DNA from: Escherichia phage Ecwhy_1 | Sequence record: MH791411.1 | Length of the DNA: 64,000 bases | Direction: 5' to 3' (one strand) | In this document: positions 1 to 33,553 of the stretch, piece after piece | How the letters are laid out: every line of letters starts with the position of its first letter | Numbering within the stretch: the first letter of the stretch is position 1 | Notes under the pieces: model-generated | What the model saw: the letters and a program-made list of their open reading frames with translations, nothing else | Database searches by the model: none | What the model was told of the DNA's origin: nothing | Program-made: the position numbers and the translations under genes

Positions 1-91
1 GTTTTATTTGTTAATCAAAAATGTTTTTGTATGCTTCAGATTACTACAAGCACCATTATATCTCGTGAATGATGCTTGTCTCAATTTTTTA

Positions 92-397
92 TCAGTATTT
101 TGTGTTCCAACGTTTAAGGTACGGCTTATCAGCGTTTACACCTGCACCAATGTTGAATTTGTAACGTAGATGTTCTAAGTCTTTTAACGTGTTAACATCT
201 TCAACAATGACAACTTTGCGTTTCTTTTCAATAGAATAGACGTCAACAATCTCACCGTCAATTTCAACAGAACCAGTTCTGGTGAAACCAGCAGACATTA
301 GAACAACTTCATCATCATTATTGTATGCAAGTACTGAATTTACGATAGTACTATCTTCCAGTACTGCACCAACACGCTTATAGATATTTTCCATATT
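92..397 (-). CDS. hypothetical protein (~101 aa, start taken at internal Met MENIYKRVG)
   Basis: ORF in track 92..493; start at 397 overlaps the stop of the upstream small ORF (translational coupling). No recognisable motif. Confidence 0.45.
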   Translation of the reverse strand, partial: NMENIYKRVGAVLEDSTIVNSVLAYNNDDEVVLMSAGFTRTGSVEIDGEIVDVYSIEKKRKVVIVEDVNTLKDLEHLRYKFNIGAGVNADKPYLKRWNTKY

Positions 398-536
398 ACT
401 CTCCTTGGGATGCACTCCATAAAACGTACTGTTCCCACGCCTCGTTAACACTGTCCTCAGACAGTGCCAGTGATTCATCAGATAATACGTCATTTACTTC
501 GTCATATTTTAGTTTAGTTTCGTCTGCAATAATCAT
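396..536 (-). CDS. small hypothetical protein (~46 aa, MIIADETKLKYDEV...)
   Basis: Track ORF 396..623 trimmed to the ATG preceded by AAGGAAA Shine-Dalgarno; sits just downstream of the polymerase stop. Confidence 0.3.
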   Translation of the reverse strand: MIIADETKLKYDEVNDVLSDESLALSEDSVNEAWEQYVLWSASQGE

Positions 537-546
537 AATATTTTCC

Positions 547-3500
547 TTACCAGGTGAAGAATCCGTTATTAACGGCTGCTGTGCTTTTCTCATGAATACC
601 AATATCCATATCCAGAATACCAAAAATGTTTTCTAATTTTTTAGTTAGAACTATTTCTTCCATTTTCTCTGTATCAAATGGTAGTTCTAAGAACCATTCA
701 GGTAGATATTCCACACAGTCAATTGGGTAACCTACTGCTTTGATACCCATCGGGTTATCTTTTAAGTTACATACAATTACTTTTGTACCGTCAGTTACTT
801 CAGGTACAGTTTTGTCATCATATACTTCACGTAGACGGTTCCATTGAATACCTGCTAATACGTGACCAACTTTACATTTACCAGAAACTTCATATTCTGC
901 TTCTAAGTTGGTATAGTTCTTAACAGTTTTCGGTGAACCCTTTTCGTGTACAGGCATGTCTTTAAATACCTCTTTAAAGTCACGTACACGCTGTTTAAGT
1001 TGAGCTTCAGACTCACCCACCAGCAATGCAATTAGAGTCTCTTCTAGGAAGTTCTGGATGTATTTTGGCGTATCTGAACGTTTAATTTCAAGACCCATCG
1101 CTTTAATTTCACCAGGCTTTCCATCAACATCTTTACGGAAACCATCTTCCCAGTACTTGAGAATTGCATAACGCTTTTTCTTCAGGAATAGACCACGGGA
1201 ACCGACCATCTCTAGGTCTGCACCAACAATCTTACCTTTCTCAATACCAGTATTGAACATTTCGTTCATGAATGAAGGGAATGATTCACCAACTTCATCA
1301 CCGATTTTGATATACATGTCAACGATTTCTTCTTTCGAAAGATTATATGGAATACCTTGTTCTTTCAGATAATGAGTTACACTGAAGTAAACAGAGTCAG
1401 TATCACCGTAAATCACAGAGCCACCTTGGTGATTATAAACGCCAGTAGTGATTTCATTGATACGGCTTGCCATATGTTTAGTCATAGAACGACCAGTTAA
1501 GGTAACGGACTGACCTAAACGTTTATCAAAGAAACGTGAACCTTTGTTCAATAGTGCACCATATAGACTGTTTAGAAGAATCTTACGAATTTGCTGGTTC
1601 TGTTTCCAGAATGCACTTTGCTGTTTGAAGTAATTCTTATCTTCCGTTGCACAGAAAATACGACCATCTTTCAGTACTAAACCATTTTCCACAATGAGTT
1701 TTGCAACTTCTTCCCATTGACCTTTACCAATAGCAATACGTAATAGATAAACAGGATCATTGTCATGTAAGTTTGTACGGAACATTGTACCACTTGTGTA
1801 GTTAGATAGCAAAGGTTCAACCTTCTCAGAACCATTGAATTCCCACCCATCACTATACATGTGTTTGTAGTCGATTACCATTTTTTGTTGTGCTTTACGC
1901 TCAGAATACCATTGAGTAAGAATATCTGGAATTACACCATACTTAGACTTATCAAAAAGTGTTCCGTTAGCACTTAGTACAATAGTACTGTCTTCAGCAA
2001 AGATAATATCATACAATTCTTTACCAGTTGCATTGAACGAACTACCATCTTCTAAATCAACAATCAAAGTTTTGTCAGATTTTTCATGAACCATTGTAAA
2101 TTCTACAGCAGCAAATAAACCATGCCATGCAGCGGTCCAATCAGGTTCAAACGCTTTAGATTTGGATTTAGCTTTTTGCTCTTGTACTTTAGCAGCAAGA
2201 TATGCATCAGTGTAGTCTTGACGAAGTTGTCCAAGAATACATTCAGTACTCATGCCAAGTGTACGTAGTACAGTTGGATACAATGAGTTAAAGTCTGTAC
2301 ATCCCAAATCGCTAACAAGGCCAAGAACTGGATCTTGAACCCATGCACCAGCAGCTTTTGCACTGATTTTCTCATCTTCTTCATCACCTTCTTCACCATA
2401 GTACTCCATCTCTGGATCTAACTCAATATCATCTTTCGGTGCTTTGTTAAAAACAACTTCACCGCGACTGTGAGCAAGGTTGATGATAGCAGTGTCGATT
2501 AGTGCAACCGAACCCATTGTAGTACTAATTAGTACACATTCTTTATGAGCAAGACGGTTGTGCAGGTTGATAAAGTCACATTTAGCATCAATTTTCTTTA
2601 GAAGAATACTATCCTGCTTAGAATAACGCAAGAATGTAATGTAATCTTCACGGTATAGTTTATCCAATGAACCTTCATAGGATACTTTGTTTTCTTTAGT
2701 TACCTTTTCAGCAATATAATCTAGTTTGTACGACTGTTCAACTTGACCAGCATGTTTCTTATAAAGAGCAAGATAGTCTAAGTGTACGCGTCCAATAAGA
2801 TCATATGTTACTACAGTTTTACCAAAGTTATCAGCTTCACGAGCATTTGGTTTTTTATTCCACAAGCACCAACGAGCAGTAGTTGCTTCGTTGAAGATTT
2901 TCTTGGTACGGTTTACCATATATGGAATATCAAAGAATTCACTGTTCCAACCTGAAATTACATCAGAGTCATCGATTAGACTAAAGAACTCCATAAACAT
3001 TTCTTTCTCATCCGTATAAAGGATGACAGTACTGTTAGGGTCGTTAGTTTCTTCGTTTAACTGACGAACAATATCTTGTGCTTCGTACATTTCCATATCA
3101 GTTGGTGGCAAAGTCAGTACATAATCCTTACCAGTCCATGATTGATATAGAGAAATTGCAGTTACGCGGTTGAATGGATCTGATGGTGGAGCATAACCAA
3201 ACTTCTTATGGAAGTCGGTTTCGATATCGAAAAATGCTACGTTCAAATCCGGCGAACCTTTACCCATGTATTCTCTAGCCAACGTTTTGAAGGTAATGTT
3301 GCAATCACTTTCAAAAATACGTAGACCTTCATTTTTATGTTGCTCAACGCTTTTATTCATCTGTGATTGAGTTTCAAACTCCAAATGCTTTGCGTTGGTT
3401 CCATAAATTGTTTTGTGTTCACCAGTAGGAGATTCAACATAATATTCATATACTGGGTCCAACTGACGTAGAATACGTTTACCGTTTTTACGTTCTGCTA

Positions 3501-3552
3501 CGTGCAAAATATCACCAGTACGTTTACGTTCCATATAAGCATCGATATACAT
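547..3552 (-). CDS. 43: DNA polymerase, family B (T4 gp43-like), 1001 aa
   Basis: Exo I motif FFDIETD, motif A DFNSLYPTV, motif B KILLNSLYGAL, motif C YGDTDSVYF; segments resemble T4 gp43 as recalled (WNSEFFDIPYMVNRTK, LDYLALYKKH). ATG at 3552 preceded by AAAGGA. Confidence 0.95.
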   Translation of the reverse strand: MYIDAYMERKRTGDILHVAERKNGKRILRQLDPVYEYYVESPTGEHKTIYGTNAKHLEFETQSQMNKSVEQHKNEGLRIFESDCNITFKTLAREYMGKGSPDLNVAFFDIETDFHKKFGYAPPSDPFNRVTAISLYQSWTGKDYVLTLPPTDMEMYEAQDIVRQLNEETNDPNSTVILYTDEKEMFMEFFSLIDDSDVISGWNSEFFDIPYMVNRTKKIFNEATTARWCLWNKKPNAREADNFGKTVVTYDLIGRVHLDYLALYKKHAGQVEQSYKLDYIAEKVTKENKVSYEGSLDKLYREDYITFLRYSKQDSILLKKIDAKCDFINLHNRLAHKECVLISTTMGSVALIDTAIINLAHSRGEVVFNKAPKDDIELDPEMEYYGEEGDEEDEKISAKAAGAWVQDPVLGLVSDLGCTDFNSLYPTVLRTLGMSTECILGQLRQDYTDAYLAAKVQEQKAKSKSKAFEPDWTAAWHGLFAAVEFTMVHEKSDKTLIVDLEDGSSFNATGKELYDIIFAEDSTIVLSANGTLFDKSKYGVIPDILTQWYSERKAQQKMVIDYKHMYSDGWEFNGSEKVEPLLSNYTSGTMFRTNLHDNDPVYLLRIAIGKGQWEEVAKLIVENGLVLKDGRIFCATEDKNYFKQQSAFWKQNQQIRKILLNSLYGALLNKGSRFFDKRLGQSVTLTGRSMTKHMASRINEITTGVYNHQGGSVIYGDTDSVYFSVTHYLKEQGIPYNLSKEEIVDMYIKIGDEVGESFPSFMNEMFNTGIEKGKIVGADLEMVGSRGLFLKKKRYAILKYWEDGFRKDVDGKPGEIKAMGLEIKRSDTPKYIQNFLEETLIALLVGESEAQLKQRVRDFKEVFKDMPVHEKGSPKTVKNYTNLEAEYEVSGKCKVGHVLAGIQWNRLREVYDDKTVPEVTDGTKVIVCNLKDNPMGIKAVGYPIDCVEYLPEWFLELPFDTEKMEEIVLTKKLENIFGILDMDIGIHEKSTAAVNNGFFTW

Positions 3553-3579
3553 CGTTTGTATTCCTTTACGTTTATTAAG

Positions 3580-3610
3580 TTAAAAATAAAGCCCCCATTC
3601 ATTGGAGGCT
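3580..3610 (-). terminator. hairpin plus T-run immediately upstream of the polymerase SD (terminator and/or gp43-type translational operator)
   Basis: Minus-strand read AGCCTCC-aatgaat-GGGGGCT followed by TTTATTTTT, about 20 nt before the polymerase ribosome-binding site. Confidence 0.5.
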
Positions 3611-3634
3611 ATAAAGTTTAGTTTTTAGTACTTA

Positions 3635-3940
3635 TTAGTAATCGTCATCTGCTTGTGGCAAATTGTTAGTAACACTTAGGATAGTTTCGATATTATCGAG
3701 TTTGTTTTGTTTATCAAAGTAATCGCCTTTGTAGATACGTTGAGCGGCTTGTTTGATATCGGATGCATCAATACCTAGTTCATCAGAGATGGAACTAATG
3801 AAATCTGCATAGGATGCTTTGGTGTCGTCAATAAAAGTAAGTTGTACTACTGCGTTGTTTAGTGCATCACCTAGACGTTTACGTTGTTCATCATTTAGGT
3901 CACGAATTTCAACTTTAACTTCTTTTTTAGCTTTTGCCAT
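3635..3940 (-). CDS. hypothetical small acidic protein (101 aa)
   Basis: ATG with GGAGAAG SD; C-terminal acidic tail QADDDY. Function not recognisable from sequence. Confidence 0.5.
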   Translation of the reverse strand: MAKAKKEVKVEIRDLNDEQRKRLGDALNNAVVQLTFIDDTKASYADFISSISDELGIDASDIKQAAQRIYKGDYFDKQNKLDNIETILSVTNNLPQADDDY

Positions 3941-3961
3941 TTGTTTGCTTCTCCATGTGTT

Positions 3962-3999
3962 TTGAAAAAAATGTCATCTCACAACCTCTGTAAGATGAC
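3962..3999 (-). terminator. rho-independent terminator (minus strand)
   Basis: GTCATCT / AGATGAC stem with 13-nt loop followed on the minus strand by a T-run (A-run 3965-3970 on plus). Confidence 0.55.
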
Positions 4000-4040
4000 T
4001 ACATTGTATCACTACTTACGATTTTGTTCCAAAAAAACTT

Positions 4041-4559
4041 TTAAACAGGTTTAACAGGGAACGAAAACTTCTTCTTACTAAATTCAGATGTTGTTAGAGA
4101 TGATAGCTCAAGAACATATGCTTTCAACTTAGGAAACAGTTCTATTTCATAATCAGTTGCTACCTCAAGATCTATCGCCATCTTAATGTTATTCAACTCA
4201 TTAATTGCTACGGTTCTTAATTCTTGGTGCTCAGATGATAGACGTTTGATCTTTTCATCAGTAGATTCAACATAATCAGAAATTTTACTTCCATCATAGA
4301 TTTTACCAACTACTTCATCTTCATCACCATCATGCTCCAACTCAGAAACACTGTATCCATACGGTACTAACAATGTTACATCATATGATGCTTGTGCAAT
4401 ATAACCATCATCAGAGTACTGAACTTTCAAAGTATCTTGTCTGAATTCGTTTTGACAATCATACCAGTCAACACCCTCATCTGACAATAGATAAAGAACA
4501 TTATCTCCATGTTTCTTTTCTACTGGGATATATTTTTTGAAATGTGTATATGTTTTCAT
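4041..4559 (-). CDS. hypothetical protein (172 aa), possibly tail-fiber assembly chaperone
   Basis: ATG at 4559 is 1 nt from the stop of the upstream fiber-like gene; function is a positional guess only. Confidence 0.45.
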   Translation of the reverse strand: MKTYTHFKKYIPVEKKHGDNVLYLLSDEGVDWYDCQNEFRQDTLKVQYSDDGYIAQASYDVTLLVPYGYSVSELEHDGDEDEVVGKIYDGSKISDYVESTDEKIKRLSSEHQELRTVAINELNNIKMAIDLEVATDYEIELFPKLKAYVLELSSLTTSEFSKKKFSFPVKPV

Positions 4560-4560
4560 A

Positions 4561-6189
4561 TTAAGACTCCACTACTACGTTAGTCCATACACCATTGACT
4601 AATTTTTGTGTATATCTCCAACTATAACCTTCAACGTGTGTACCTGAACTACCATTTACTGAAATAAACAACCCATCCAGTGTAGCACCTTCTGGTGCAT
4701 AGATCCAAGAAGAATCAGGAACACTTCGCGTAGATGTTCTTTTACTTAAACGAACATCTTGTACAGCACCTAGTGTTAAAGTTACGTTACCGTTTGCATC
4801 AGCGTTGTTACCGTTAATAGATCTGACGATGTTTTTACTAGCAACAGTTGCTATGTTTCCAGAAATAGACAATGATGCACCAGTTACTGATGGAGCATAA
4901 AGTACACCAGAAGAGTTAATTGTAACTTCAGAACCACCATTACTTCTCAAACGTAATGTATTTGTTGATGAACTGTGATAAATTGCTGCACGTTCAGTAG
5001 TTCCTGCCGCGTTACGGAAGTAAAGTACTAATGAAGTATCATTCGAACGAATTGTTGCACTGTTTGCGATACTTAATGAACCAGACATTGTATCACCAGT
5101 TTTCAGTACATAACGGGTGTTTGCAACTTTTTCACTCAATGCAACGTTAGACTCAGCAATGTTATATAAGTATGCCACATTAAAGTGTGGTACGTCAATA
5201 TTGCTAATTCCGTGGGTATGTGCTTGTCCACTACCAACGGTATTGGTTGAACCACTGAAACTATGCACGTGATCAGGTGCTTCGTTAATGTTATTAATTA
5301 CAGTTGGGATTCCGTTGTCGTTACTGGATGTTAACGCATTAAGACCACTTCTGTCCATACCTTTTAGTGCTTGACTATGACCATGACGACCAGCAGCACC
5401 AGTAGTTCCACTGAAACTAAATGAGTGCGGTGGAAGTTGAGCAATTGATATCGCAGTCCCACTAATTGATGCACTACTTGCAATCACACTATCAGTTTTA
5501 GTTACGCCTGATGTGGTAATGCCTTTCAAGTATGCTTCTTGGTTAAGATTTGGAACTTGTTTTGTGATTGTACCATTTTCACCAACCCATTGCCACCACA
5601 TTCCATCAGCAAAACACCAACCATCAGAAGTTTTCCACGGAGAACCTTGTGAACCATTACGACCACTTTGACCATTGGTCACACCAGACATCTGTTCACG
5701 AATACTAGCAACAGTTTGTCCAGAAGTCAATGAGTACTGGGTAATTGCACCAGGCTTCATTGAAGTATAAAGACCTGTTGGGCCAGTACCGCTACTTGAT
5801 GGAATAGGGAATACGATATTTAAATTCGTACCACTAATGCTCGCACTTGGAACAGCACTACTACTATATGTTACTGTTTCAACTTTTAAATTCAGTTTAC
5901 GGTTCACTTCATCGAGTGAAATACGGATTGGTTCAAGAATTGTATCAGTATCGTATACTGCAATCCAACTTGTCCCGTTGTGGTATTTTAACACCAACTC
6001 ATTTCTATCAAATACCATAGCACCTTGCTCACCTGCTGGCAATGCCTGTACTGGTAAAATGACAGAAGATGAATTAAAACGAATAGGTCTTGGATTAGTT
6101 GGTGTACCACCAAGCACTATTAGTTCTAAAGATCCATTAGCACCAGTACTAGTCATAGTATCCAGTGGGTTATTAAAACTTATGCTCAT
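4561..6189 (-). CDS. tail fiber / receptor-binding-like protein with His-x-His motifs (542 aa)
   Basis: Ser/Thr/Gly-rich fibrous composition; HSFSFSG, HGHSQ, HVHSFSG and HTHGISN motifs resembling the HxH metal-binding tips of T4 gp12/gp37; AATAAATA late-type motif about 35 nt upstream of the ATG. Confidence 0.55.
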   Translation of the reverse strand: MSISFNNPLDTMTSTGANGSLELIVLGGTPTNPRPIRFNSSSVILPVQALPAGEQGAMVFDRNELVLKYHNGTSWIAVYDTDTILEPIRISLDEVNRKLNLKVETVTYSSSAVPSASISGTNLNIVFPIPSSSGTGPTGLYTSMKPGAITQYSLTSGQTVASIREQMSGVTNGQSGRNGSQGSPWKTSDGWCFADGMWWQWVGENGTITKQVPNLNQEAYLKGITTSGVTKTDSVIASSASISGTAISIAQLPPHSFSFSGTTGAAGRHGHSQALKGMDRSGLNALTSSNDNGIPTVINNINEAPDHVHSFSGSTNTVGSGQAHTHGISNIDVPHFNVAYLYNIAESNVALSEKVANTRYVLKTGDTMSGSLSIANSATIRSNDTSLVLYFRNAAGTTERAAIYHSSSTNTLRLRSNGGSEVTINSSGVLYAPSVTGASLSISGNIATVASKNIVRSINGNNADANGNVTLTLGAVQDVRLSKRTSTRSVPDSSWIYAPEGATLDGLFISVNGSSGTHVEGYSWRYTQKLVNGVWTNVVVES

Positions 6190-6230
6190 GTATAAATCCC
6201 TTTAATGATTAATATATACTATATTTATTA

Positions 6231-6539
6231 CTATAGCAAGTCGTTTTCCATATCGTCAAGAACAGAATCGACGATGTTCGCTGCTATCTTCTTAGGCATC
6301 TTGAACCACTCGGTGTTAGGTTGCCTTACTGCGTTCATTTGTTTTAGTCTTTTGTGAATTTCTTTCTCTGCTAAACGTGCATCTTCAAAGTGTACTTCAT
6401 GGTATACCACAAAATCTCTAAAAGGTGTAGCAGTTTGATATGTCCTTAAACGTTCTGTCATTTCAGATTTACTGGTAAATCCTATCTTAACATAATCAGG
6501 CCACGCATCATTTACTATAACATAACATATCTGTGACAT
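6231..6539 (-). CDS. T5orf172 / GIY-YIG-like domain protein (~102 aa)
   Basis: CYVIVND...YVKIGFTS...RLRTYQTATPF...EKEIHKRL...EWF matches the T5orf172 (MUG113) pattern as recalled; ATG at 6539 has a GGAGA SD (track ORF starts 15 nt earlier). Confidence 0.6.
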   Translation of the reverse strand: MSQICYVIVNDAWPDYVKIGFTSKSEMTERLRTYQTATPFRDFVVYHEVHFEDARLAEKEIHKRLKQMNAVRQPNTEWFKMPKKIAANIVDSVLDDMENDLL

Positions 6540-6578
6540 AGAAAATATCTCCATCAGTAATATGAAGATATTTATTAA

Positions 6579-6929
6579 TCAAGTAATTCGGAAATTTACC
6601 CCAGCATCAATTAGGCGTTGGAATGGGTTTTGTGGCTCGAATTCAGAAGGAGTTTTTGAAATGTTCAGTACTGGAGCATCAGCATGTAACTTTGACATAC
6701 GTTCTTTGTACTTATCTAAGTATTCTTCATATAACATATCTTCAGTGTTACTATCAAGTATGTCTTCAATAAATGAATCAATACTATAGTCCAGTCTATC
6801 ATCATTATAATACAAAGTTTCACTAGCTTCATCATAACCAACTAAAGTCCCGTATGGAACGTTAATCTCAATTTTTGAGTACTGACTCTTTAAGTACTCT
6901 TCTTTCTTAAAAATGTATACAGTTAACAT
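6579..6929 (-). CDS. hypothetical protein (~116 aa)
   Basis: Track ORF begins with TTG at 6938; the ATG at 6929 is preceded by TAAGGAG. No recognisable domain. Confidence 0.45.
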   Translation of the reverse strand: MLTVYIFKKEEYLKSQYSKIEINVPYGTLVGYDEASETLYYNDDRLDYSIDSFIEDILDSNTEDMLYEEYLDKYKERMSKLHADAPVLNISKTPSEFEPQNPFQRLIDAGVNFRIT

Positions 6930-6952
6930 CCGTGTCAACTCCTTATGGTTGT

Positions 6953-7876
6953 TTACTTAAAAGTATTTACGATTTCCAAAACACTTTCAAGATACTTAGC
7001 ATCAAAAGTTTCAGTAAATCCTGATGGTAACTCTTCAGTACTTACAACACCACTTTCAATGTATTGCTTGATGAACTTTTCCAATAATAATGGTTTGTTA
7101 CCATCCTCAAAGTAACGTTCTACCAGTACAGTGTGTTCAAAATCAGAATCACGGCTTTGTTCATGAATTCGCCTCTTCATGTCACCAGTAATTCCGTATT
7201 TGTAAACGACTTTTGAGTTATTAGATAGTTTTTGTACATAGAAATATCCAGGCTTTGATGGTTGATAACCATACTCACCACATGATGGACATCCTCTTCC
7301 TGCCATATGAGATTTGGGTATTTGTTTAAAGACACCATGTTCAGGACAAATAATATCCACATGTTCATCACTAGTCTTGTAATCCACCAAGCTATAATCA
7401 TACTTATGGTTATGGATAGGCGACACAAGTTCAATGAAACGTTCAGTACTTCTTCCACCTTTACCAGAACATATTCCACAACTAGTTTTTCCTTTTAATA
7501 ATGTTGCGGCTGATACTTCCCAATCATGAACATCATTTGGATCGTTGTGACATGTTACCGTCACTTTCCCATTACAATCACGTTGTCTTTTGTAGATAGT
7601 TTTTTCAAATGACAATGTTGGATGAATTGTTTTTACTTTCTCTATGAACGTTTCAGTTGTGTATGCTGTATTTTTTTGGCAAATATTACATCCCTTTGCA
7701 GTAGATCTTACAATTTGCATAGGAGTGATTTTGAAATAATGACCACCTTCCACACAATAAAGTTCAACCTGTTTATGTGCATTTATGTATACCATTTTAT
7801 CAAACAAATAAACCCCAGTGCCATATTTTTCATTCACCGTATTGATAAATTTTTCTTCATTTGGATTCATTGTCAT
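6953..7876 (-). CDS. zinc-ribbon repeat protein with C-terminal T5orf172/GIY-YIG-like domain (307 aa); putative homing-endonuclease-like nuclease
   Basis: Three tandem ~55-aa modules each ending in C-x2-C (GCNICQK, CGICSGKG, GCPSCGEYG) with conserved FIE...KYDYS...ICPEHG; C-terminal GYFYVQKLS...YKYGITGDMKRRIHE is GIY-YIG/T5orf172-like. Confidence 0.55.
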   Translation of the reverse strand: MTMNPNEEKFINTVNEKYGTGVYLFDKMVYINAHKQVELYCVEGGHYFKITPMQIVRSTAKGCNICQKNTAYTTETFIEKVKTIHPTLSFEKTIYKRQRDCNGKVTVTCHNDPNDVHDWEVSAATLLKGKTSCGICSGKGGRSTERFIELVSPIHNHKYDYSLVDYKTSDEHVDIICPEHGVFKQIPKSHMAGRGCPSCGEYGYQPSKPGYFYVQKLSNNSKVVYKYGITGDMKRRIHEQSRDSDFEHTVLVERYFEDGNKPLLLEKFIKQYIESGVVSTEELPSGFTETFDAKYLESVLEIVNTFK

Positions 7877-7904
7877 TTCTCTTCTTCATTTATAATGTAC
7901 GCGT

Positions 7905-7933
7905 ATTATTACACAAAAAATGTGACATGTCAA
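7905..7933 (-). promoter_or_regulatory. sigma70-like promoter (TTGACA-N17-AATAAT) for the nuclease/fiber cassette
   Basis: Minus-strand TTGACA at 7933-7928 and AATAAT at 7910-7905, located between the capsid-gene terminator and the 6953..7876 start. Confidence 0.4.
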
Positions 7934-7935
7934 CA

Positions 7936-7966
7936 CAAAAAAGAAAAGGGACTCCGAAGAGTCCCT
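7936..7966 (-). terminator. rho-independent terminator after the major capsid gene
   Basis: GGGACTC-cgaa-GAGTCCC hairpin flanked by an A-run on plus (T-run on minus) and TATTGTTTTT on plus. Confidence 0.65.
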
Positions 7967-8009
7967 ATTGTTTTTAATTTCTTGATTAAATCTTTTAAAT
8001 CGATTACAA

Positions 8010-9185
8010 TTACATGAAAGTAACGTTTTTGATAGCGATTTTGCTGTAGTAGTCAGCAGCGTTACCAAGAGAAGAAGTACTATCAGTCAATTGTACATAA
8101 CCATACCTGGTAAGGAAAGTTGTGACCAATTCCCCAGTGTTAGGGTCCATTACAGTACCGGAAGCCATTAGTGGGATGTATGGGCAATAGAACACACCAG
8201 CATCAGTTTCAGCATTACCTTTATAACCAATCAAAATGTCCTCGACATCTGAGGCATACGTATCGACAAAAATACGCATGGTGCTGTTTAGAGTACCAAC
8301 GAATTTAACGTTAGTTGGAGCTTCGAAAGTACCTTCAGTAGTACGTGCAAAACTAGAAGTAGTTGCAGACTGTAGAATGGTTAGAGCGGTTGGAGAAACA
8401 ACAGCCCAGTTCGCAGCACCACGTTTGGTACGACGAGCAACTTCGTTCGCTTGACGGTTGATTAGGGTAGCTAGAGCAGCGTGCTCGTCACCAACGAAGG
8501 TCGCAACACCAGTAACTTTAGATTGGTCATAAGTTACAGCAGCAGCACCAGGTAGTGCACGTAGACGGCTTAGTAGCTCTTGGTCGATTTCAACGGTAAC
8601 TTCTTGAGCGATTGCAGCCATTAGTTCAGCTTCAACATCGATACCATGTTGGGATTGTGCATCTTGTGCAGATTCAACAGTCCAACGTGCAGATAGACGA
8701 CGAGATTTCGCTTCAACAGTTTCACGTAGGATACGGATGTTAACGCGACGACCCATAGTACCTTCTAGTTGGCTAGTAGGAGCAGCTTGTGGGTTGCTGT
8801 TGTCTGCGTTTAGGTCACCAGTATAAGACTTAGCGATTTTGTATGGAGAAAGCATTTCTTCACCAGCGATAACACCAGGAGCGTTGTCAGCATATTGAAC
8901 ACGTAGGGTGTGGATCTGACCAACTGGGCCAGTCATTGGCTGAACACCGATGATTTCGTTAGCGATTACGGTTGGCATAACACGACGCATAATTGGTAGA
9001 ATCACTTTGTTTAGAGTAGCGATGTTACCAGCGGTGGTTGCACCAGAAGTAGCAGATTCGTTTAGCATTAGTTTACGATGGTTATCAAGTACGGTTTCCA
9101 TTACGGACTTACGAGTACCTTGTAGACCTTCAACTAGTTTCTCTTTAACTGCTACCCATTTGGATTCATTTAGTAGTTGTGACAT
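8010..9185 (-). CDS. 23: major capsid protein (T4 gp23 family), 391 aa
   Basis: IANEIIGVQPMTGPVGQIHTLRVQY and NIRILRETVEAKSRRLSARWTVESAQD align to T4 gp23 IAFDICGVQPM... and ...VIEAKSRQLKAAYSIELAQD as recalled; AAGGAG SD. Confidence 0.85.
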   Translation of the reverse strand: MSQLLNESKWVAVKEKLVEGLQGTRKSVMETVLDNHRKLMLNESATSGATTAGNIATLNKVILPIMRRVMPTVIANEIIGVQPMTGPVGQIHTLRVQYADNAPGVIAGEEMLSPYKIAKSYTGDLNADNSNPQAAPTSQLEGTMGRRVNIRILRETVEAKSRRLSARWTVESAQDAQSQHGIDVEAELMAAIAQEVTVEIDQELLSRLRALPGAAAVTYDQSKVTGVATFVGDEHAALATLINRQANEVARRTKRGAANWAVVSPTALTILQSATTSSFARTTEGTFEAPTNVKFVGTLNSTMRIFVDTYASDVEDILIGYKGNAETDAGVFYCPYIPLMASGTVMDPNTGELVTTFLTRYGYVQLTDSTSSLGNAADYYSKIAIKNVTFM

Positions 9186-9220
9186 TATTATCTCCTTAAA
9201 GATGTTATATTCGTTTTTCA

Positions 9221-9278
9221 GTATGATATTATTTATAGAACTGAAAAATTTGATTATTAAAATGCTTTAAAATGTTTA
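9221..9278 (-). repeat. ~55-bp late-promoter cassette, copy A (second copy at 11978..12034)
   Basis: GTATGATATTATTTA...ACTGAAAAATTT...TTAAAA-GCTTTAAAA-GT is shared almost verbatim with 11978..12034. Confidence 0.6.
9230..9237 (-). promoter_or_regulatory. T4-type late promoter TATAAATA upstream of the capsid gene
   Basis: Exact TATAAATA on the minus strand about 45 nt upstream of the capsid ATG. Confidence 0.6.
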
Positions 9279-10391
9279 TTTTTTATTGATACCAGAAAGA
9301 ACATCGAGTTCTTTTAGGAATGCCATATCGTCAGCGGTCATTTCTTCGCTTTCAACAATAGCCTGACGGTTGCCAGTGATTACTTTACCTTCTGCAAGAG
9401 TTCTCTTAGCGGAAGACTGAACTGCTTGACGAGTGGTAGCAGATTCATTTACTTTAGTACCGTTAAGTACTGACTTATGGTACTTGCTGAAATCGTCTTT
9501 AAGCTTTTCTGTAGGAGAAGTAGCTAGAAGGGATTCCATAATTTGTTTCTGTTGTGTAGTTAGTGGCTTAACTAGTTCAGACATAATCGCATTACGAGCT
9601 TGTGAATCTTCCATAATACGTAGTTTGGTTTTAGCAGCTTTAACTTCACTTACAGTTTCATTTAGTTCTTGTTTAACTTGTGCAATTTCGTCTTCTTTAG
9701 ACTTAATTGATTCAGTTAGGGAACGTAGTAGTGAATTCTCATTAAATTGTTTGACATTAAACTCTTGAGCAAACGCTTCAAAGATTTTACGACCAAACAT
9801 ATTTTGTTTTGCTTCAACAAGATCTTCTTTCAAAGCGTATAGGTTTTTCTGAGTAGTTTCTGCAATGTATTTAGCAGCACTTTCAGAGGTACGTTTGATG
9901 AAGTTGTTACGTGCTTCAGCAATTTGACGGGAGCCTTCAGCTAGTAGTTTTACGCGAGTTTCAACTAGTTGACGTTTCTCGATGTGGAATTCTTTTAGCT
10001 CTTCTGCTAGGATACCGTTAGAGAAATTAACGAATTTACCCATGCATTCTTGAAGATGCTTACGTTCTTTACGCATTTGTTTAACTTCTTCAGCCAAAAC
10101 AGAGTTAGAAAACGCAGAGAAATTACTTAGGGTTTTACGGAGAGTTACACGATCTTCTACAAGACGTTTTTTCTCTTCATATACTGCACCCATTTCTTCA
10201 GCGATAACTTGAGTAACCATAGTATTTAGACCTTCGGTTAGCTCGGACAAATCTTGTTTGTAGCGGCCTTTCATTTCTTCACGCATTTCTGCGGCAAGTG
10301 TGTTTTTTTCTTCATTCCATGCTTCCTGAATTAGCTGTTTTGCCTCATCAGAAAGAGATGATTCTTTTAGAAGCTTTTCTAATTTAGACAT
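9276..10391 (-). CDS. 22: prohead scaffold/core protein (gp22-like), 371 aa
   Basis: Strongly charged, predicted coiled-coil composition (E/K/L/Q-rich); sits between protease and capsid gene as in T4; AAAGGAGAG SD. Confidence 0.6.
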   Translation of the reverse strand: MSKLEKLLKESSLSDEAKQLIQEAWNEEKNTLAAEMREEMKGRYKQDLSELTEGLNTMVTQVIAEEMGAVYEEKKRLVEDRVTLRKTLSNFSAFSNSVLAEEVKQMRKERKHLQECMGKFVNFSNGILAEELKEFHIEKRQLVETRVKLLAEGSRQIAEARNNFIKRTSESAAKYIAETTQKNLYALKEDLVEAKQNMFGRKIFEAFAQEFNVKQFNENSLLRSLTESIKSKEDEIAQVKQELNETVSEVKAAKTKLRIMEDSQARNAIMSELVKPLTTQQKQIMESLLATSPTEKLKDDFSKYHKSVLNGTKVNESATTRQAVQSSAKRTLAEGKVITGNRQAIVESEEMTADDMAFLKELDVLSGINKK

Positions 10392-10457
10392 TCGTTCTCT
10401 CCTTTAAGTACTGAAATATCTGTACTTCAACATACAAATATTTATATTTTTAAAATG

Positions 10458-11078
10458 TTAACCTTTTAATTTCTTGAAAAAATCGTAAATTTCAGAATCT
10501 ACATTATTTACTGTTTTAGATTCTGTGATTTTTTTAGGACTATTACAAGGTGATCCGTACTTACTCATCAGAGATTCAAAAACCGCAGTAGGGTATGCCT
10601 CTGGAGCACTAGGTTGAGCAACAATATCAATTGTGATAATTTCAAAATCAGAAACTATTCCATTGTAATCCACGTTACCGGAACCACGAGAACTTACACC
10701 AAGTTTCACACCAGCTTCTAGCATTTTACGAATATTAGTACCATGAGCAGTATCAAGTAGTTTGATTTCTGCCATGCCGTTAGCACCTTCCATCCAGACC
10801 TTAGTAATCATTGCTGCTACACGGTCAAGGTTAATTGTTAGTGTTTCTGGGTGGTCACATTCAACTAGAATACTTTCACCTTTAGCCAAACGTTGAGCCA
10901 TATTATTAACAGCTTTAGTAATTTCGGCTAAAGGGTAAATTCTCTCATTTAAATTTCTTTGATCGGCTTGAATAGCAATACCACGAAGATAGCAATCACG
11001 CCCACCAAGTCCATTATCACGATGTTCCAAAACAACTTTAGAATCATTGAATGAAGACCATTCACGAATCATACTCAT
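10458..11078 (-). CDS. 21: prohead protease (gp21-like), 206 aa
   Basis: Size and position (core - protease - scaffold - capsid) match T4 gp21; AAGGAG SD. Sequence similarity to gp21 is by impression only. Confidence 0.6.
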   Translation of the reverse strand: MSMIREWSSFNDSKVVLEHRDNGLGGRDCYLRGIAIQADQRNLNERIYPLAEITKAVNNMAQRLAKGESILVECDHPETLTINLDRVAAMITKVWMEGANGMAEIKLLDTAHGTNIRKMLEAGVKLGVSSRGSGNVDYNGIVSDFEIITIDIVAQPSAPEAYPTAVFESLMSKYGSPCNSPKKITESKTVNNVDSEIYDFFKKLKG

Positions 11079-11109
11079 AATGATCTCCTTTCCTTTTCTT
11101 TATTTAGTG

Positions 11110-11943
11110 TTAGATTTTTGGTTGTGATTTTGGTAGTGGAGAACGAGATTTAGAAGCGGTATTTTTTGGCTTCGCAACATCTTTCATTTCGCCACGAGCA
11201 TTTTTACCTAGGTCTTCATCAGTGTGGGACATAGCATCTTCGTTTTCAAAATCATAATCTACTTGTTTTTCGGAAGCTTTAGCGAATTTCACTGGAGCAA
11301 CACCTTGAACTGGAGATTTAGCTTCTGGGGCAACTGGAGACTTGGTATTAACGCCAGCTTTTTCTTTCTTATCAACCGCAGCAACTTGCTTAAGTTTGAA
11401 AGACTCACCAACTTTCTCATCACCGAATTGTACATCAGCAAATTCGTCTTCAGATTCTTCACCATCAGCACCGAATTCTTCTTCCGCACCAACTTCAACT
11501 TCTTCGTCGTCAGAACCTAGGTCAACTTCATCACCACCGATTTCGTCAAACATTTGTTGTAGGCCACGGAAAGCATCTTGAATAGATTCCCATTGGTCTT
11601 CGGAAGGAACTTCTGCACCAACTTCTGCTTCAGCGTCAACTTCTTCGCCATCAGCATCAGCAGAGAATTCAACTTCTTCTTCTGCACTTTCATCTTCTTC
11701 ACCTAGGGTGTATTCGATTTCAGCATTTAGACCAGCGTCTGGTTGAACATCAAAGTCTTCGTCAAGTTTTTCTTCGTCTTTGACTTCAACTTCACATTCT
11801 TCTTCGTCCATGCTTTCTTCTAGTTCTTTATTGATTTCTTGAGCTTGCTCAACAAAGTACTTACGCATTTTTTTATCAGCAACATCTTGTTCGCCGTTTG
11901 CAAACGCTTCAATTGCTTCTTGTAGTAGTTTTAAATTCGCCAT
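11110..11943 (-). CDS. acidic prohead core / internal protein (~277 aa)
   Basis: Extremely acidic (long E/D runs); GGAGGA SD before the second ATG; occupies the T4 gp68-like position between portal and protease. Confidence 0.5.
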   Translation of the reverse strand: MANLKLLQEAIEAFANGEQDVADKKMRKYFVEQAQEINKELEESMDEEECEVEVKDEEKLDEDFDVQPDAGLNAEIEYTLGEEDESAEEEVEFSADADGEEVDAEAEVGAEVPSEDQWESIQDAFRGLQQMFDEIGGDEVDLGSDDEEVEVGAEEEFGADGEESEDEFADVQFGDEKVGESFKLKQVAAVDKKEKAGVNTKSPVAPEAKSPVQGVAPVKFAKASEKQVDYDFENEDAMSHTDEDLGKNARGEMKDVAKPKNTASKSRSPLPKSQPKI

Positions 11944-11977
11944 TATATCCTCCATAGATATATTACATTCATATAAA

Positions 11978-12034
11978 GTATGATATTATTTAGTACTGAA
12001 AAATTTCGCCATTTTTAAAAGCTTTAAAAAGTGC
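11978..12034 (-). repeat. ~55-bp late-promoter cassette, copy B (variant ACTAAATA core at 11987..11994)
   Basis: Near-identical to 9221..9278; the core motif sits 44 nt upstream of the 11943 ATG. Confidence 0.55.
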
Positions 12035-12043
12035 GATTTTTGT

Positions 12044-12271
12044 TTACATTAATCCTGAACCATCACCGGATGGTGCTGCTGCATAAACAACAGCGACAAC
12101 ATTTTTGCGTCGTTGTTCTTCATTAGCTTTAAATTCACGGTACTTTCTTAAATTATTAAGTACTTGTAATGTTAGTTTTGGTTTTCTGGAATCAGTAATT
12201 TTATATACGTTCTGATCATCTTCAGGGTCGTATAAAGAATCACTGCTAGATTCAAAGATGTCCTTTAACAT
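12044..12271 (-). CDS. small head-module protein (75 aa; gp67-like by position)
   Basis: ATG with AAAGGAGA SD; located between portal and core genes. Confidence 0.45.
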   Translation of the reverse strand: MLKDIFESSSDSLYDPEDDQNVYKITDSRKPKLTLQVLNNLRKYREFKANEEQRRKNVVAVVYAAAPSGDGSGLM

Positions 12272-12344
12272 TTCATCTCCTTTGAATATGCATTATAATG
12301 AGGGCAACTAATGTACCCTCATTCTTATACATTGTTATTTATGA

Positions 12345-14081
12345 TTAAAAAGAATCGCCTAAATTATTCGGGTTAAAACCTGCACTTCCTTGTTGTTCTT
12401 GGTATTCAGCATCGGCACTTTCTAAGTTACCGTCACCATCAATACCCAAATCCATACCAGGATCGTTAGGAGCATCTATACCAACAGATTGCAACCCAGC
12501 AGCATCTTCTTCACCACTTGACGGAGCGGAACCATCTTGTGGATTTTCTTGGAGCCACATTTGCTCATTCTTAACAATATCAGCTTTAGAGAAGCCCATT
12601 TTTTCAAGAATAGTTTGTTTTGCCATATATGGCAGATCGTTAAGTGGGAGATAGGTGTTAATTAGTTTAGCATCTAGTTCCGCTTTACGATAAGAAGCCA
12701 AGTTAATAGGTGGATTCATAATTACTTCAAAAGATGAAGTACTAATGTTATATCCATTTTTAACCATAAAACGTTTAAATTCTGCATCAAATAGTTTTGC
12801 AACTAAACGTTGATAACGCATACATTGGTTATTAAAACGTAATTCACTTGCCATTGCTTGTGTTGCACCATCACCGAATAGTGATACACCACCATCATCT
12901 GGACCTTGCGGTAGATATGAAGCTGGAATTTGCAATCCACGAATCAATTTATTGTTGAAGTAACGCAAGTCATCAATCTGACCTAAGTTATCACCACCTG
13001 GAAGTGTTTGTACATCTGAACCACGACCTTCAGAAGTTTGTGGGAAGAAGTAATCTTCTAGAATACTTAATGGATTATATGCTGCATCCATTAGAGAAGT
13101 ACTGCCACCTTTATTTGAAGGAATACGTCTTTGGTGAATTTCATTTTTGAATCGTTCTACGTATGCCATTGCTTGGTGAGTTTGCATATCACCAACGTCG
13201 ATTTTAAATACACGACGCTCTGGAGCACGTTGAACACGATAGATAATAATACTATCTTCAAGTAATTCTTTTTGTTTATAGACTTTGAAAACATCTTCAA
13301 GTATACTAGTACCAAAAGGCCAAACTCCATCTTGTCCTGTATTTAGGGTTAGATGAATTACGTGTTCTGCACCAACTGGAATAACATCAAGACGACCGTT
13401 AGTACTGAATGGGTCAGCAGAGTTTCCTTGGTTAGTAAAGCCAGATGCACCACCTGCTGCTACTGAACCACCGCCACCTAATGTGGTAGGGATTGCACCA
13501 GGATATGCAGTTTTGTCAAAACCAACTTGTAAGTTACTAAACACTTTATCTTTAAGATTCAAAGATACGTCACGGATATAATAAATTACAGGGGTTTTTC
13601 CGGTTGCTTCGTTAACGAATACTTGTTCAACGTTTTTTGGGCTTACCCAGTACCAGTCAAATGTTTCTGGGTCACGAATGAAGAATTGGTCACCGTATTT
13701 TAATAGGCCACGTACAATTTCATACATTCTGGTTTTAAAATCATTTTGTTCAGTCCATGCATCCAAACGGTCTTCAATAGTAGTTACTTCTGTATCACCA
13801 ATATCATCTTTATATTTGATTTTATATGGAAGACCAAAATCTTCAGTACTTTGTGTACAGAAGTCAGCAATGATATTAAGTGCTGTTCTAATTTCAGGAT
13901 CTTGGTCCATCTGTTCATACTGACTATAACGTTCAGTACGGTTAGCTAAACCATTGTATACTACTGGAAGATAGGAAGCGAAATTGGTTTTCGTTCCTGT
14001 TGATTTGTTGCTATTACTGGACTGATTAGGGACGACCGATAACTTCGATCTCCCCATTGTCATATGTCGTTTCCAACTCAT
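12345..14081 (-). CDS. 20: portal protein (gp20-like), 578 aa
   Basis: IIYRVQRAPERRVFKIDVGDM and DYFFPQTSEGRGSDVQTLPGGDNLGQIDDLRYF align to T4 gp20 [21 protein letters not shown] and [33 protein letters not shown] as recalled; AAGGA SD. Confidence 0.9.
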   Translation of the reverse strand: MSWKRHMTMGRSKLSVVPNQSSNSNKSTGTKTNFASYLPVVYNGLANRTERYSQYEQMDQDPEIRTALNIIADFCTQSTEDFGLPYKIKYKDDIGDTEVTTIEDRLDAWTEQNDFKTRMYEIVRGLLKYGDQFFIRDPETFDWYWVSPKNVEQVFVNEATGKTPVIYYIRDVSLNLKDKVFSNLQVGFDKTAYPGAIPTTLGGGGSVAAGGASGFTNQGNSADPFSTNGRLDVIPVGAEHVIHLTLNTGQDGVWPFGTSILEDVFKVYKQKELLEDSIIIYRVQRAPERRVFKIDVGDMQTHQAMAYVERFKNEIHQRRIPSNKGGSTSLMDAAYNPLSILEDYFFPQTSEGRGSDVQTLPGGDNLGQIDDLRYFNNKLIRGLQIPASYLPQGPDDGGVSLFGDGATQAMASELRFNNQCMRYQRLVAKLFDAEFKRFMVKNGYNISTSSFEVIMNPPINLASYRKAELDAKLINTYLPLNDLPYMAKQTILEKMGFSKADIVKNEQMWLQENPQDGSAPSSGEEDAAGLQSVGIDAPNDPGMDLGIDGDGNLESADAEYQEQQGSAGFNPNNLGDSF

Positions 14082-14093
14082 TATTGTTCGTCC

Positions 14094-16292: not shown

Positions 16293-16437
16293 AACATTCC
16301 CTTTTAATAGATGTATTATAGAAATATTTATGAATCTATAACGAATAAAAAAGACCCATCTATAACATTTGTCCAATTTGTCCCATTTTTTGGTAATAAA
16401 TACTACAGAGACATTTATTACATGGAGATTTAATAAA

Positions 16438-17274
16438 ATGGCAATGAACCCACTAGCTAAGTATACTAAAATTGAAGAACTTGGTACAAAATTGGTCACA
16501 AATGGCGTGATTCCTTATAAAGAAGGAGTTCTTGGCTCTAAAGGTATCAAATGTGGCATTTGTGCTCGTAGTGCACGCGATGAAATGACACTCAATACAC
16601 CAGATATGCTTCTAAATGGTGATGCAATTGCTCGTGTTATTGAAAACTGCGTACCTAACGTACTTGATGCAGATGAACTTTATGTAAATGACGTAGAGCA
16701 ACTACTTATCGCTATTAAAGTAGCTTCTAAAGAAGAATCATATGATATTAATGTGACATGTCCTGAATGTAACAAAGAAGGCCGTTTTGAGCGTAGCTTA
16801 TCATATCTACTAGAAACAGCACAAACTTTCAGTGAAGTTCCTACTGTACAATTGGATAATGGACTAAGTTTAGAGTTTAGACCACTTACTTGGAAGGAAT
16901 ATTCTAACTTCGCAGAAAGAATGTTTACAGAACAACAAAAAACTAAATTCCTTGAAACTGCCGAAATGGAGCAGGAAGAAAAAGTTAAAGTGTTTGGTGA
17001 AGTATTTGAAAGTATGGCACAACTCAACTTTGATATGATCGCAGGAGTTATTGCTAAAGTAATTACTCCTGAAGGTGATGAAGTAACTGAAAACGAATTC
17101 ATTGCTGAATGGCTAGGTCAGCAGTCCAAAGGAACACTTAAAATAATTCGTGAAAAAATGGATGAAGTACTTGAAATTGGTGTTTCCCATACTATGGAAG
17201 TTGAATGCAGTGACTGTAATCATCAATGGGAAATTAATGGACTGAAATATGACCCAAGTCATTTTTTCGCATAA
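16438..17274 (+). CDS. hypothetical zinc-binding protein (~278 aa) with three C-x2-C motifs
   Basis: CGIC, CPEC and CSDC motifs; GGAGA SD; AATAAATA late-type motif upstream. Confidence 0.5.
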   Translation: MAMNPLAKYTKIEELGTKLVTNGVIPYKEGVLGSKGIKCGICARSARDEMTLNTPDMLLNGDAIARVIENCVPNVLDADELYVNDVEQLLIAIKVASKEESYDINVTCPECNKEGRFERSLSYLLETAQTFSEVPTVQLDNGLSLEFRPLTWKEYSNFAERMFTEQQKTKFLETAEMEQEEKVKVFGEVFESMAQLNFDMIAGVIAKVITPEGDEVTENEFIAEWLGQQSKGTLKIIREKMDEVLEIGVSHTMEVECSDCNHQWEINGLKYDPSHFFA

Positions 17275-22939: not shown

Positions 22940-22947
22940 TATAAATA
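22940..22947 (+). promoter_or_regulatory. T4-type late promoter TATAAATA for the baseplate operon
   Basis: Exact TATAAATA 36 nt upstream of the 22983 ATG. Confidence 0.65.
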
Positions 22948-28984: not shown

Positions 28985-28992
28985 TATAAATA
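28985..28992 (+). promoter_or_regulatory. T4-type late promoter TATAAATA for the lysozyme gene
   Basis: Exact TATAAATA 18 nt upstream of the 29010 ATG, preceded by TTTCAGTAC as at the capsid promoter. Confidence 0.6.
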
Positions 28993-33473: not shown

Positions 33474-33479
33474 CACATT

Positions 33480-33507
33480 AAGGCGTTCTTCGGAACGTCT
33501 TTTTTAT
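33480..33507 (+). terminator. rho-independent terminator
   Basis: GGCGTTC-ttcg-GAACGTC hairpin followed by TTTTTTAT. Confidence 0.7.
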
Positions 33508-33553
33508 ATCATAAATAAATCAAATGAATGAACGAATTATATGGAGTCCAAAA

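Follow-up and report, generated by a model that had tools for sequence, protein, structure and literature searches.

A putative homing endonuclease gene beside a conserved late-gene block between the capsid and polymerase genes of an Asteriusvirus-like jumbo coliphage

Between its major capsid gene and its DNA polymerase gene, a 64,000-nucleotide (nt) stretch of Escherichia phage Ecwhy_1 (sequence record MH791411.1), referred to here as the window, carries five open reading frames (ORFs) at positions 3962-7966. They encode a putative homing endonuclease (ORF307), two small proteins (ORF116 and ORF107), a fibre of 542 amino acids (aa) and a tail fibre assembly chaperone. An earlier note, made from the letters of the window, had described them as a single host-range or accessory cassette, bounded by terminators and moved by a nuclease. 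This description was built on features that are real: the ORFs, the terminator at each end and the sigma70-like promoter. All five ORFs lie on the minus strand where they had been placed, as does every gene within 1-16.5 kb. The order of transcription is capsid, terminator, sigma70-like promoter, ORF307, ORF116, ORF107, fibre, chaperone, terminator, ORF101, terminator and polymerase. The five genes thus do lie between the capsid and polymerase genes as had been claimed, but they do not adjoin the polymerase gene, from which ORF101 and a further terminator separate them. The features of the region are as follows.

8010-9185, minus strand: major capsid gene, the first of the region in transcription order
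8010-8209, minus strand: last 200 nt of the capsid gene, a putative co-conversion tract that follows the nuclease type
7947-7966, minus strand: intrinsic terminator of the major capsid gene, with an 8-bp stem including 5 GC pairs, then TTTTCTTTTTT; the T-run extends to about 7937
6930-7938, minus strand: putative mobile insertion of 1009 bp relative to phage fEgEco12, which contains ORF307 with its promoter and supplies ORF116 with a replacement ribosome-binding site
7905-7933, minus strand: sigma70-like promoter of ORF307 (TTGACA, 17 nt, TG-n-AATAAT)
6953-7876, minus strand: ORF307, a predicted free-standing T5orf172/GIY-YIG homing endonuclease, with zinc modules at aa 1-205 and a nuclease domain at aa 206-307
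6579-6929, minus strand: ORF116, a conserved acidic protein of 116 aa (phrog_15724 at 1e-52)
6569-6575, minus strand: T4-late-like promoter core ATAAATA upstream of ORF107, assigned from motif and conservation
6231-6539, minus strand: ORF107, a stand-alone T5orf172/GIY-YIG domain protein of 102 aa from its conserved start
6222-6228, minus strand: T4-late-like promoter core ATAAATA upstream of the fibre gene, assigned from motif and conservation
4561-6189, minus strand: 542-aa fibre, orthologue of RaK2 gp098 (phrog_13229 at 9e-247)
5212-5385, minus strand: central fibre segment with three HxH motifs (aa 269-271, 307-309 and 324-326)
4018-4776, minus strand: putative exchangeable host-range module (fibre tip, aa 471-542, and chaperone gene), recognized from a swap in phage WPEC5
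4041-4559, minus strand: 172-aa tail fibre assembly chaperone of the P2 G/Mu U type (Caudo_TAP 5.8e-09; phrog_136 5e-34)
3973-3999, minus strand: intrinsic terminator after the chaperone gene, with a 12-bp stem, then ATTTTTTT
3635-3940, minus strand: ORF101, between the fibre block and the polymerase gene, with its own terminators on either side
3610-3590, minus strand: terminator between ORF101 and the polymerase gene

A megablast search with positions 3500-8100 matched 59 phage records. The strong matches are all E. coli/Salmonella jumbo phages of 320-386 kb and make up the 121Q/PBECO4 (Asteriusvirus) group, the best of them being fEgEco12 with 99.6% identity. The window therefore reads as Asteriusvirus-like jumbo coliphage DNA of this group. 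In domain searches, its likeness to T4 is at the family level and is limited to the capsid protein (Gp23 family), the portal, the prohead protease and the family-B polymerase. A T4-type (Straboviridae) genome is ruled out by the best DNA matches, and the premise that T4-type genomes carry no fibre gene at this position is inapplicable here.

The mobile part of the region is confined to the space directly downstream of the capsid gene. The window and fEgEco12 are 99.6% identical over 1-6929 and 7939-17000, and between these flanks the window has 1009 bp against 39 bp in fEgEco12. The insertion begins where the T-run of the capsid terminator stops and reaches as far as the ORF116 ATG, and ORF307 and its promoter are cleanly absent from fEgEco12 and PBECO4. 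The contents of this slot were typed in 17 phages of the Asteriusvirus group, in two Mimasvirus phages (CBB and XbC2) and in RaK2. The slot is empty (74-118 bp) in fEgEco12, CMSTMSU, PBECO4 and SD-2_S15, and CBB and XbC2 likewise have no gene there. A nuclease of the 306/307-aa type occupies it in the window, WPEC5, G17 and E9.1; one of 365/368 aa with an extra N-terminal module in 121Q, WPEC3, Turkey3, BF17 and A4; one of 309 aa in EC.P1; one of 332 aa in TH47, SHEFM2K and JNE01; and one of 406/408 aa in Turkey5 and RaK2. Phage ph0011 carries an unrelated protein of 532 aa in the slot (L015:4929-6527), with a DUF7487 match and a weak REase_MTES_1575 match, and the slot therefore attracts different nuclease families. 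In all phages the slot has the same sharp edges, namely the terminator T-run and the start codon of ORF116. Empty slots have a sequence of about 40 bp of their own, including CTAAATA upstream of ORF116, and no deletion scars.

Occupancy of the slot does not follow descent. Identity in ORF116 splits the phages into window-like (98-100%) and 121Q-like (about 80%) sub-clades, and the empty, 307-type and 365-type states are each present in both, a distribution that we read as horizontal movement of the nuclease gene. The nuclease alleles are also mosaic: the Turkey3 protein is 100% identical to that of the window at residues 141-307 and 43% identical at residues 1-140. Of the five genes, only ORF307 with its promoter (6930-7938) varies in presence and in allele and is thus mobile. 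The part of the earlier proposal that stands is a mobile homing-type nuclease at the junction, and the part that falls is its cargo, as ORF116, ORF107, the fibre and the chaperone keep their place.

The 3' end of the capsid gene carries a second signature of this movement. Its last ~130-200 nt follow the nuclease type, not the sub-clade: the haplotype matches the type in 4 of 4 phages with the 307-type (type A) and in 5 of 5 with the 365-type (type B), across sub-clades. The differences between the haplotypes are all synonymous and include switches between TCN and AGY serine codons. Comparison of the window with G17 locates the same effect: the 5' part of the slot and the final 200 nt of the capsid gene are 100% identical, whereas identity is about 90% for ORF307, 92.9% for the remaining capsid gene and 80-86% for ORF116, ORF107 and the polymerase gene. 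The association between haplotype and nuclease indicates co-conversion, the pattern expected of a homing endonuclease gene (HEG) with conversion of flanking markers. ORF307 thus combines presence and absence at a single site among close relatives with a co-conversion signature in its flank.

Patches of dense, purely synonymous differences among otherwise near-identical phages are seen at 8067-8129 and 8214-8271 in the capsid gene. The former follows the nuclease type of the adjacent slot. Both patches may mark sites of nuclease targeting or of immunity, or conversion tracts left from earlier events. As a simple marker of target or immunity, the patch at 8214-8271 is rejected, since it follows neither the presence nor the type of the nuclease.

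Profile searches uphold the earlier description of ORF307 and ORF107 as T5orf172/GIY-YIG-like proteins with a nuclease-like GIY-YIG fold. ORF307 matches DUF4379 at 7.8e-06, above the curated cut-off, and the 'endonuclease' family phrog_681 at 2e-63. It has a T5orf172/GIY-YIG catalytic domain, the Pfam T5orf172 score of which falls under the curated threshold, and this domain is homologous to ORF107 (hhalign E 2.6e-4). All of 34 homologues keep Y213, K226, G228 and E289, and R236 is conserved in at least 90% of them; from the order of the motifs, these catalytic-type residues would be equivalent to Y6, R27 and E75 of I-TevI. The N-terminal part consists of three alpha-beta-beta-alpha modules with a C..H...CxxC pattern, formed by C41/H46/C63/C66, C109/C133/C136 and C177/H180/C196/C199. 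In module 2 the three cysteines are invariant and no His partner is assigned. DNA binding is predicted for the zinc-finger modules and DNA cleavage for the C-terminal GIY-YIG-fold domain. A sequence search of ORF307 against solved structures returned chance-level matches only, and no PADLOC defence-protein model matched. Homologues are found at 1474 places in 948 phage records, most of them from Vibrio, Escherichia and Klebsiella phages, and the ratio of nonsynonymous to synonymous substitution rates (dN/dS) against G17 is 0.07. ORF307 appears to belong to the T5orf172 class of homing endonucleases within the GIY-YIG superfamily, a class that has already been described. Such enzymes carry repeated CapR/DUF723/DUF4379-like zinc fingers and undergo domain shuffling, and 31% of them adjoin capsid genes (PMC10448857). 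Nuclease activity of a T5orf172 protein has been demonstrated experimentally for Odn, in which it needs a conserved Glu (PMC8263062).

The sigma70-like promoter at 7905-7933 belongs to the insertion. It has 11 of 12 consensus matches and an extended TG, and it is the top-scoring sigma70-like site in 13 kb. Scans for such elements are at chance level overall (43 promoter-like sites where 43.8 are expected; for terminator-like sites, 6 where 6.0 are expected). This promoter and the terminators at 7947-7966 and 3973-3999 are credited because they are intergenic and conserved in relatives and because the record of phage G17 independently annotates terminators equivalent to both. The terminator at 7947-7966 forms the upstream edge of the nuclease slot, and its sequence is invariant in five relatives. 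In the alignment of relatives, the promoter is missing wherever ORF307 is missing, and the 365-aa nuclease allele has an analogous promoter (TTGACA-17-TATAAT). The promoter serves ORF307 only. The earlier note was therefore right about its existence and wrong to assign it to the whole unit, as ORF107 and the fibre gene have ATAAATA motifs of their own. A single sigma70-driven operon of five genes is ruled out on the same grounds, the promoter belonging to the insertion and separate conserved late motifs preceding ORF107 and the fibre gene.

These late motifs are conserved in relatives. The ATAAATA upstream of ORF107 is kept before its orthologue in 121Q, fENko-Kae01, 7t3 and CBB, and that upstream of the fibre gene is kept at an equal distance from the start codon in the same four phages and in RaK2. 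The core ATAAATA occurs 16 times in the window, and 11 of the 16 copies fall in the non-coding 7% (binomial P ~1e-9), the intergenic copies mostly lying 7-71 nt upstream of a start codon. The sequence TATAAATA has only 4 copies in the 64 kb, each just upstream of a structural gene, the capsid gene included. Such placement suggests a T4-like late transcription system in this group of jumbo phages. The promoter of ORF307 would then be of the early type and those of ORF107 and the fibre gene of the late type. The (T)ATAAATA motif is found at 9230-9237, 10439-10446, 22940-22947 and 28985-28992, with 12 further ATAAATA sites, and is rare within genes. A motif close to that of late promoters, TATAAATG, lies at 7877-7900, downstream of the sigma70-like -10 element and ahead of the ORF307 start; given this motif, ORF307 may also be transcribed late.

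The other four genes (ORF116, ORF107, fibre and chaperone) make up a block whose place between capsid and polymerase is the same in the Asteriusvirus phages examined, in Mimasvirus and in the 7t3/fENko-Kae01 group, also where the slot is empty. The order of capsid, slot, ORF116-like protein, small T5orf172 protein, fibre, chaperone, ORF101-like protein and polymerase is found in fENko-Kae01, 7t3, CBB and XbC2. RaK2 has the same order with ORF116 and the fibre present, and is without the small T5orf172 protein and the chaperone. Constancy of position in relatives had been named in the earlier note as evidence against its own proposal, and this is what the synteny comparison finds for these four genes. 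ORF116 had been listed as a 119-aa ORF (6579-6938), but alignment puts its true start at the conserved ATG at 6929. It is 50% identical to ORF096 of RaK2 and has a dN/dS of 0.11.

ORF107, listed as an ORF at 6231-6554, likewise has a conserved start further in, at 6539. It matches T5orf172 at 3e-13, above the curated threshold, and has the GIY-YIG fold. The nearest solved structures are the URI-type GIY-YIG nucleases SLX1 and HIGLE, with which it shares the beta-beta-alpha-beta-alpha core and the conserved Tyr, Arg and Glu positions. Its catalytic-type residues are invariant, its dN/dS is 0.05, and it is fixed and conserved in length in most relatives (Asteriusvirus, Mimasvirus, 7t3 and fENko-Kae01). 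PADLOC gives ORF107 no full-length defence-protein match, but only matches to the T5orf172 part of PDC-S57 and PD-Lambda-1. A homing endonuclease is rejected for ORF107, since its 102 aa include no DNA-binding module and it is a fixed gene, not a variable one. ORF097 of RaK2 is rejected as a diverged ORF107 (hhalign probability 0.3%), an unrelated protein occupying that position. Rather than a dead remnant of a homing endonuclease, ORF107 could be a domesticated, late-expressed, stand-alone GIY-YIG nuclease kept for the benefit of the phage. The invariant catalytic-type residues, the dN/dS, the late motif and the fixed position before the baseplate fibre gene are compatible with this, although we consider such a domesticated enzyme unlikely. 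Its possible roles include SLX1-like, structure-specific trimming of branched DNA before packaging and attack on competing DNA. Its absence from RaK2 is evidence against ORF107 being indispensable.

The 542-aa protein is a fibre of the receptor-binding type and the next gene encodes its assembly chaperone, as the earlier note had proposed. The fibre is not an 'extra' one, however: it is the orthologue of the essential baseplate protein gp098 of RaK2, with which it shares 50% identity over aa 1-472 (E 2e-161) and the same gene neighbours. Experiments with antisera and immunogold labelling have placed RaK2 gp098 on the baseplate and have identified it as a secondary receptor binder essential for infection (PMC10253068). 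Short baseplate fibres are visible in micrographs of fEgEco12 (PMC13070987). Because of the orthology, the baseplate experiments on gp098 and the fibres visible on fEgEco12, we regard the fibre as a probable core component of the virion, a gp098-type baseplate receptor binder and not an accessory protein. It is also 56% identical to ENKO_290 of fENko-Kae01, which was detected by liquid chromatography-tandem mass spectrometry (LC-MS/MS) in a data set that also held the DNA polymerase and so is not strictly virion-specific. A sequence search of the fibre against solved structures gave no match at E up to 1. The three HxH motifs that had been assigned to the fibre tip do exist, but they are central (aa 269-326 of 542). 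They are kept in fENko-Kae01 and one only survives in RaK2. These motifs may bind metal; in fibre needles of the T4 gp37/gp12 type, metal ions are coordinated at the distal tip by HxH motifs of a trimeric beta-helix.

The variable part of the fibre is its C-terminal tip. In WPEC5, which is otherwise 98.8-99.5% identical, 338 bp replace 4018-4776, that is, the fibre from residue 471 and the whole chaperone gene. No chaperone gene lies downstream of the fibre gene in WPEC5, Turkey3, Turkey5 or RaK2. The RaK2 fibre ends in a Gp53-like_C domain, and the WPEC5 tip has a short RaK2-like motif. Against the 121Q sub-clade, the segment 4018-4776 is the least conserved, with 66-69% identity against 81-85% in the remaining fibre. 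Distant relatives of the tip occur in rV5-like and phapecoctavirus fibres, and relatives of the chaperone in P2-like phages and phapecoctaviruses. The chaperone scores 36.6 bits for Caudo_TAP against a curated cut-off of 22.1, lies directly 3' of the fibre gene and is exchanged with the tip; it is an ordinary member of this family. The tip region is probably a recombination hot spot in this phage group. Two chaperone genes follow the fibre gene in A4 (L024:2036-3189), and JNE01 has a longer fibre of 557 aa (L023:2548-4221). The window and WPEC5 have the same 307-aa nuclease and different tips, and fEgEco12 has no nuclease and the tip of the window. In the window, WPEC5, Turkey3, WPEC3 and fEgEco12, tip type and nuclease type assort independently, which contradicts movement of the fibre by the nuclease.

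Taken together, the region is best explained by a selfish ORF307 homing nuclease gene that lies beside an ancestral late-gene block, with the fibre tip swapped independently, an explanation to which we give a probability of roughly 85%. ORF307, driven by its early-type sigma70-like promoter, would occupy a hot-spot slot between the capsid terminator and the ORF116 start codon. It would spread when Asteriusvirus phages infect a cell together: genomes that have no nuclease would be cut near the slot, and recombinational repair would then copy in both ORF307 and the capsid gene's 3' end, a co-transfer that appears as a signature in the aligned genomes. ORF116, ORF107, the fibre and the chaperone would be an ancestral, fixed late-gene block of Rak2-like jumbo phages, of which RaK2 itself is without ORF107 and the chaperone. 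The fibre tip would fold with help from the downstream chaperone, and host-range variation would arise from swaps of the tip, with or without the chaperone and independent of the nuclease. Several points weigh against this explanation. Cleavage by ORF307 and a cleavage site near the slot are predictions, and the promoters are assigned from their motifs. Phage fEgEco12 has no nuclease and yet has the capsid 3' haplotype of the 307-type carriers, so that a precise loss or a very recent gain must be assumed. The synonymous patch at 8214-8271 does not follow the nuclease type. Many of the compared phages are closely related, so the association between haplotype and nuclease represents few independent events.

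The whole five-gene block could instead be one mobile host-range cassette moved by the nuclease or nucleases, which would make it what Barth et al. (2023) call an 'HEG island'. It is bounded by terminators, contains two T5orf172 genes and has in its fibre tip and chaperone the most variable part of the region, and a nuclease on either side has been suggested for such islands (PMC10448857). However, the four downstream genes are in place in all examined relatives from Asteriusvirus, Mimasvirus and the 7t3/fENko-Kae01 group, those with empty slots included, and ORF116 and the fibre also in RaK2. Transfer of cargo with the nucleases is not seen either: ORF116, ORF107 and the fibre track the sub-clade and not the nuclease type, and G17 shares the 307-type nuclease yet is only 80-85% identical there. 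Moreover, the conversion tract extends into the capsid gene and not toward the fibre, and the tip types assort independently of the nuclease types. Synteny has already largely refuted a joint cassette, and we regard it as hardly credible.

Two further explanations concern the nuclease itself. ORF307 could be domesticated and no longer homing, for example as a nuclease excluding competing phages or satellites or as a zinc-finger regulator of the adjacent capsid gene, in the manner of PLE CapR or ICP1 Odn. The co-option of T5orf172 nucleases and their zinc-finger domains in ICP1 and PLE (PMC8263062, PMC8096241, PMC10448857), the purifying selection on ORF307 seen in its dN/dS against G17 and its place next to the capsid gene all favour such a role. 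Nevertheless, presence and absence and allele turnover among phages of 98-99.6% identity, with co-transfer of the flank, are what an active selfish gene produces, close relatives are viable without ORF307, and homing and the exclusion of competitors are not mutually exclusive; a purely domesticated ORF307 is thus very unlikely. Alternatively, the slot could have been occupied since ancient times, with repeated loss or decay of nucleases and with ordinary homologous recombination, rather than nuclease-driven homing, shuffling the alleles. Occupied slots in RaK2, 7t3 and fENko-Kae01, the RaK2-like type in Turkey5, the mosaic alleles of Turkey3 and the resemblance of fEgEco12 to a precise loss in a window-like background are consistent with this history. 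The sharp and invariant slot edges, the scar-free sequence of the empty slots, the presence of at least six unrelated or distant occupants, one of them a nuclease-like protein outside T5orf172, and the local peak of identity around the nuclease gene across sub-clades argue against it, and we consider it unlikely.

Among the neighbouring genes, ORF101 is small, conserved and present in all genera examined, and it has a weak PHROG match to a 'transcriptional regulator' (1.6e-07); its orthologue in fENko-Kae01 was picked up by LC-MS/MS. The five proteins have no paralogues elsewhere in the 64-kb window, and none of them matches an NCBIfam family. No RNA family of Rfam is matched over 3400-9400, and therefore there is no intron or known RNA element there. 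ORFs of 1153, 3333 and 1644 aa lie on the plus strand in the structural region (30012-43525 and 55958-60892) and presumably encode tail, fibre or baseplate giants.

Asteriusvirus records mostly label the genes of this region 'hypothetical', and some label them wrongly; the 542-aa protein should be treated as a gp098-type baseplate receptor binder. The WPEC3 record labels the polymerase 'co-chaperone GroES', and that of CRJP21 labels the slot nuclease 'DNA polymerase II'. The gene calls of CMSTMSU are fragmented and the capsid gene of SD-2_S15 is split by a 22-nt gap (problem records L004, L011, L014 and OQ708376). For host-range engineering of jumbo coliphages that are candidates for therapy, the part to swap is the fibre from about residue 471 onward together with the chaperone gene. 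The slot offers a clean natural system for T5orf172 homing, in which phages of 99.6% identity have no nuclease or differing types and the conversion tracts lie in an essential gene. Current concepts are unchanged by these findings.

ORF307 resembles the T5orf172 endonucleases of the ICP1 gp165/gp174 type (PMC10448857) in its C-terminal T5orf172/GIY-YIG domain and its N-terminal tandem zinc-finger repeats of the DUF4379/DUF723/CapR type. Both are intergenic beside the capsid gene, show domain shuffling between alleles and vary among close relatives. Unlike the set described there, ORF307 comes from an Asteriusvirus-like jumbo coliphage, a lineage that was not singled out. Compared with T4 SegA-G and I-TevI, the order of its domains is reversed, the nuclease domain of ORF307 being C-terminal, and its predicted DNA-binding modules take the form of repeated treble-clef zinc fingers; in sequence, no similarity to the T4 Seg proteins is detectable. 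The fibre is like the RaK2 gp098/phiK64-1 S2-8 fibre (PMC10253068) in aa 1-472, in its position between the capsid and polymerase genes and in its late-promoter motif. RaK2 gp098 has a Gp53-like_C tip and no chaperone gene, whereas the window fibre has a chaperone-dependent tip, and the HxH segment is partly shared. The chaperone and the P2 G/Mu U/lambda Tfa-type proteins share the Caudo_TAP domain, the position directly 3' of the fibre gene and the exchange with the tip, with no notable difference. The locus thus consists of a known class of homing endonuclease in a hot-spot slot, a known baseplate fibre and a standard, chaperone-linked exchangeable tip.

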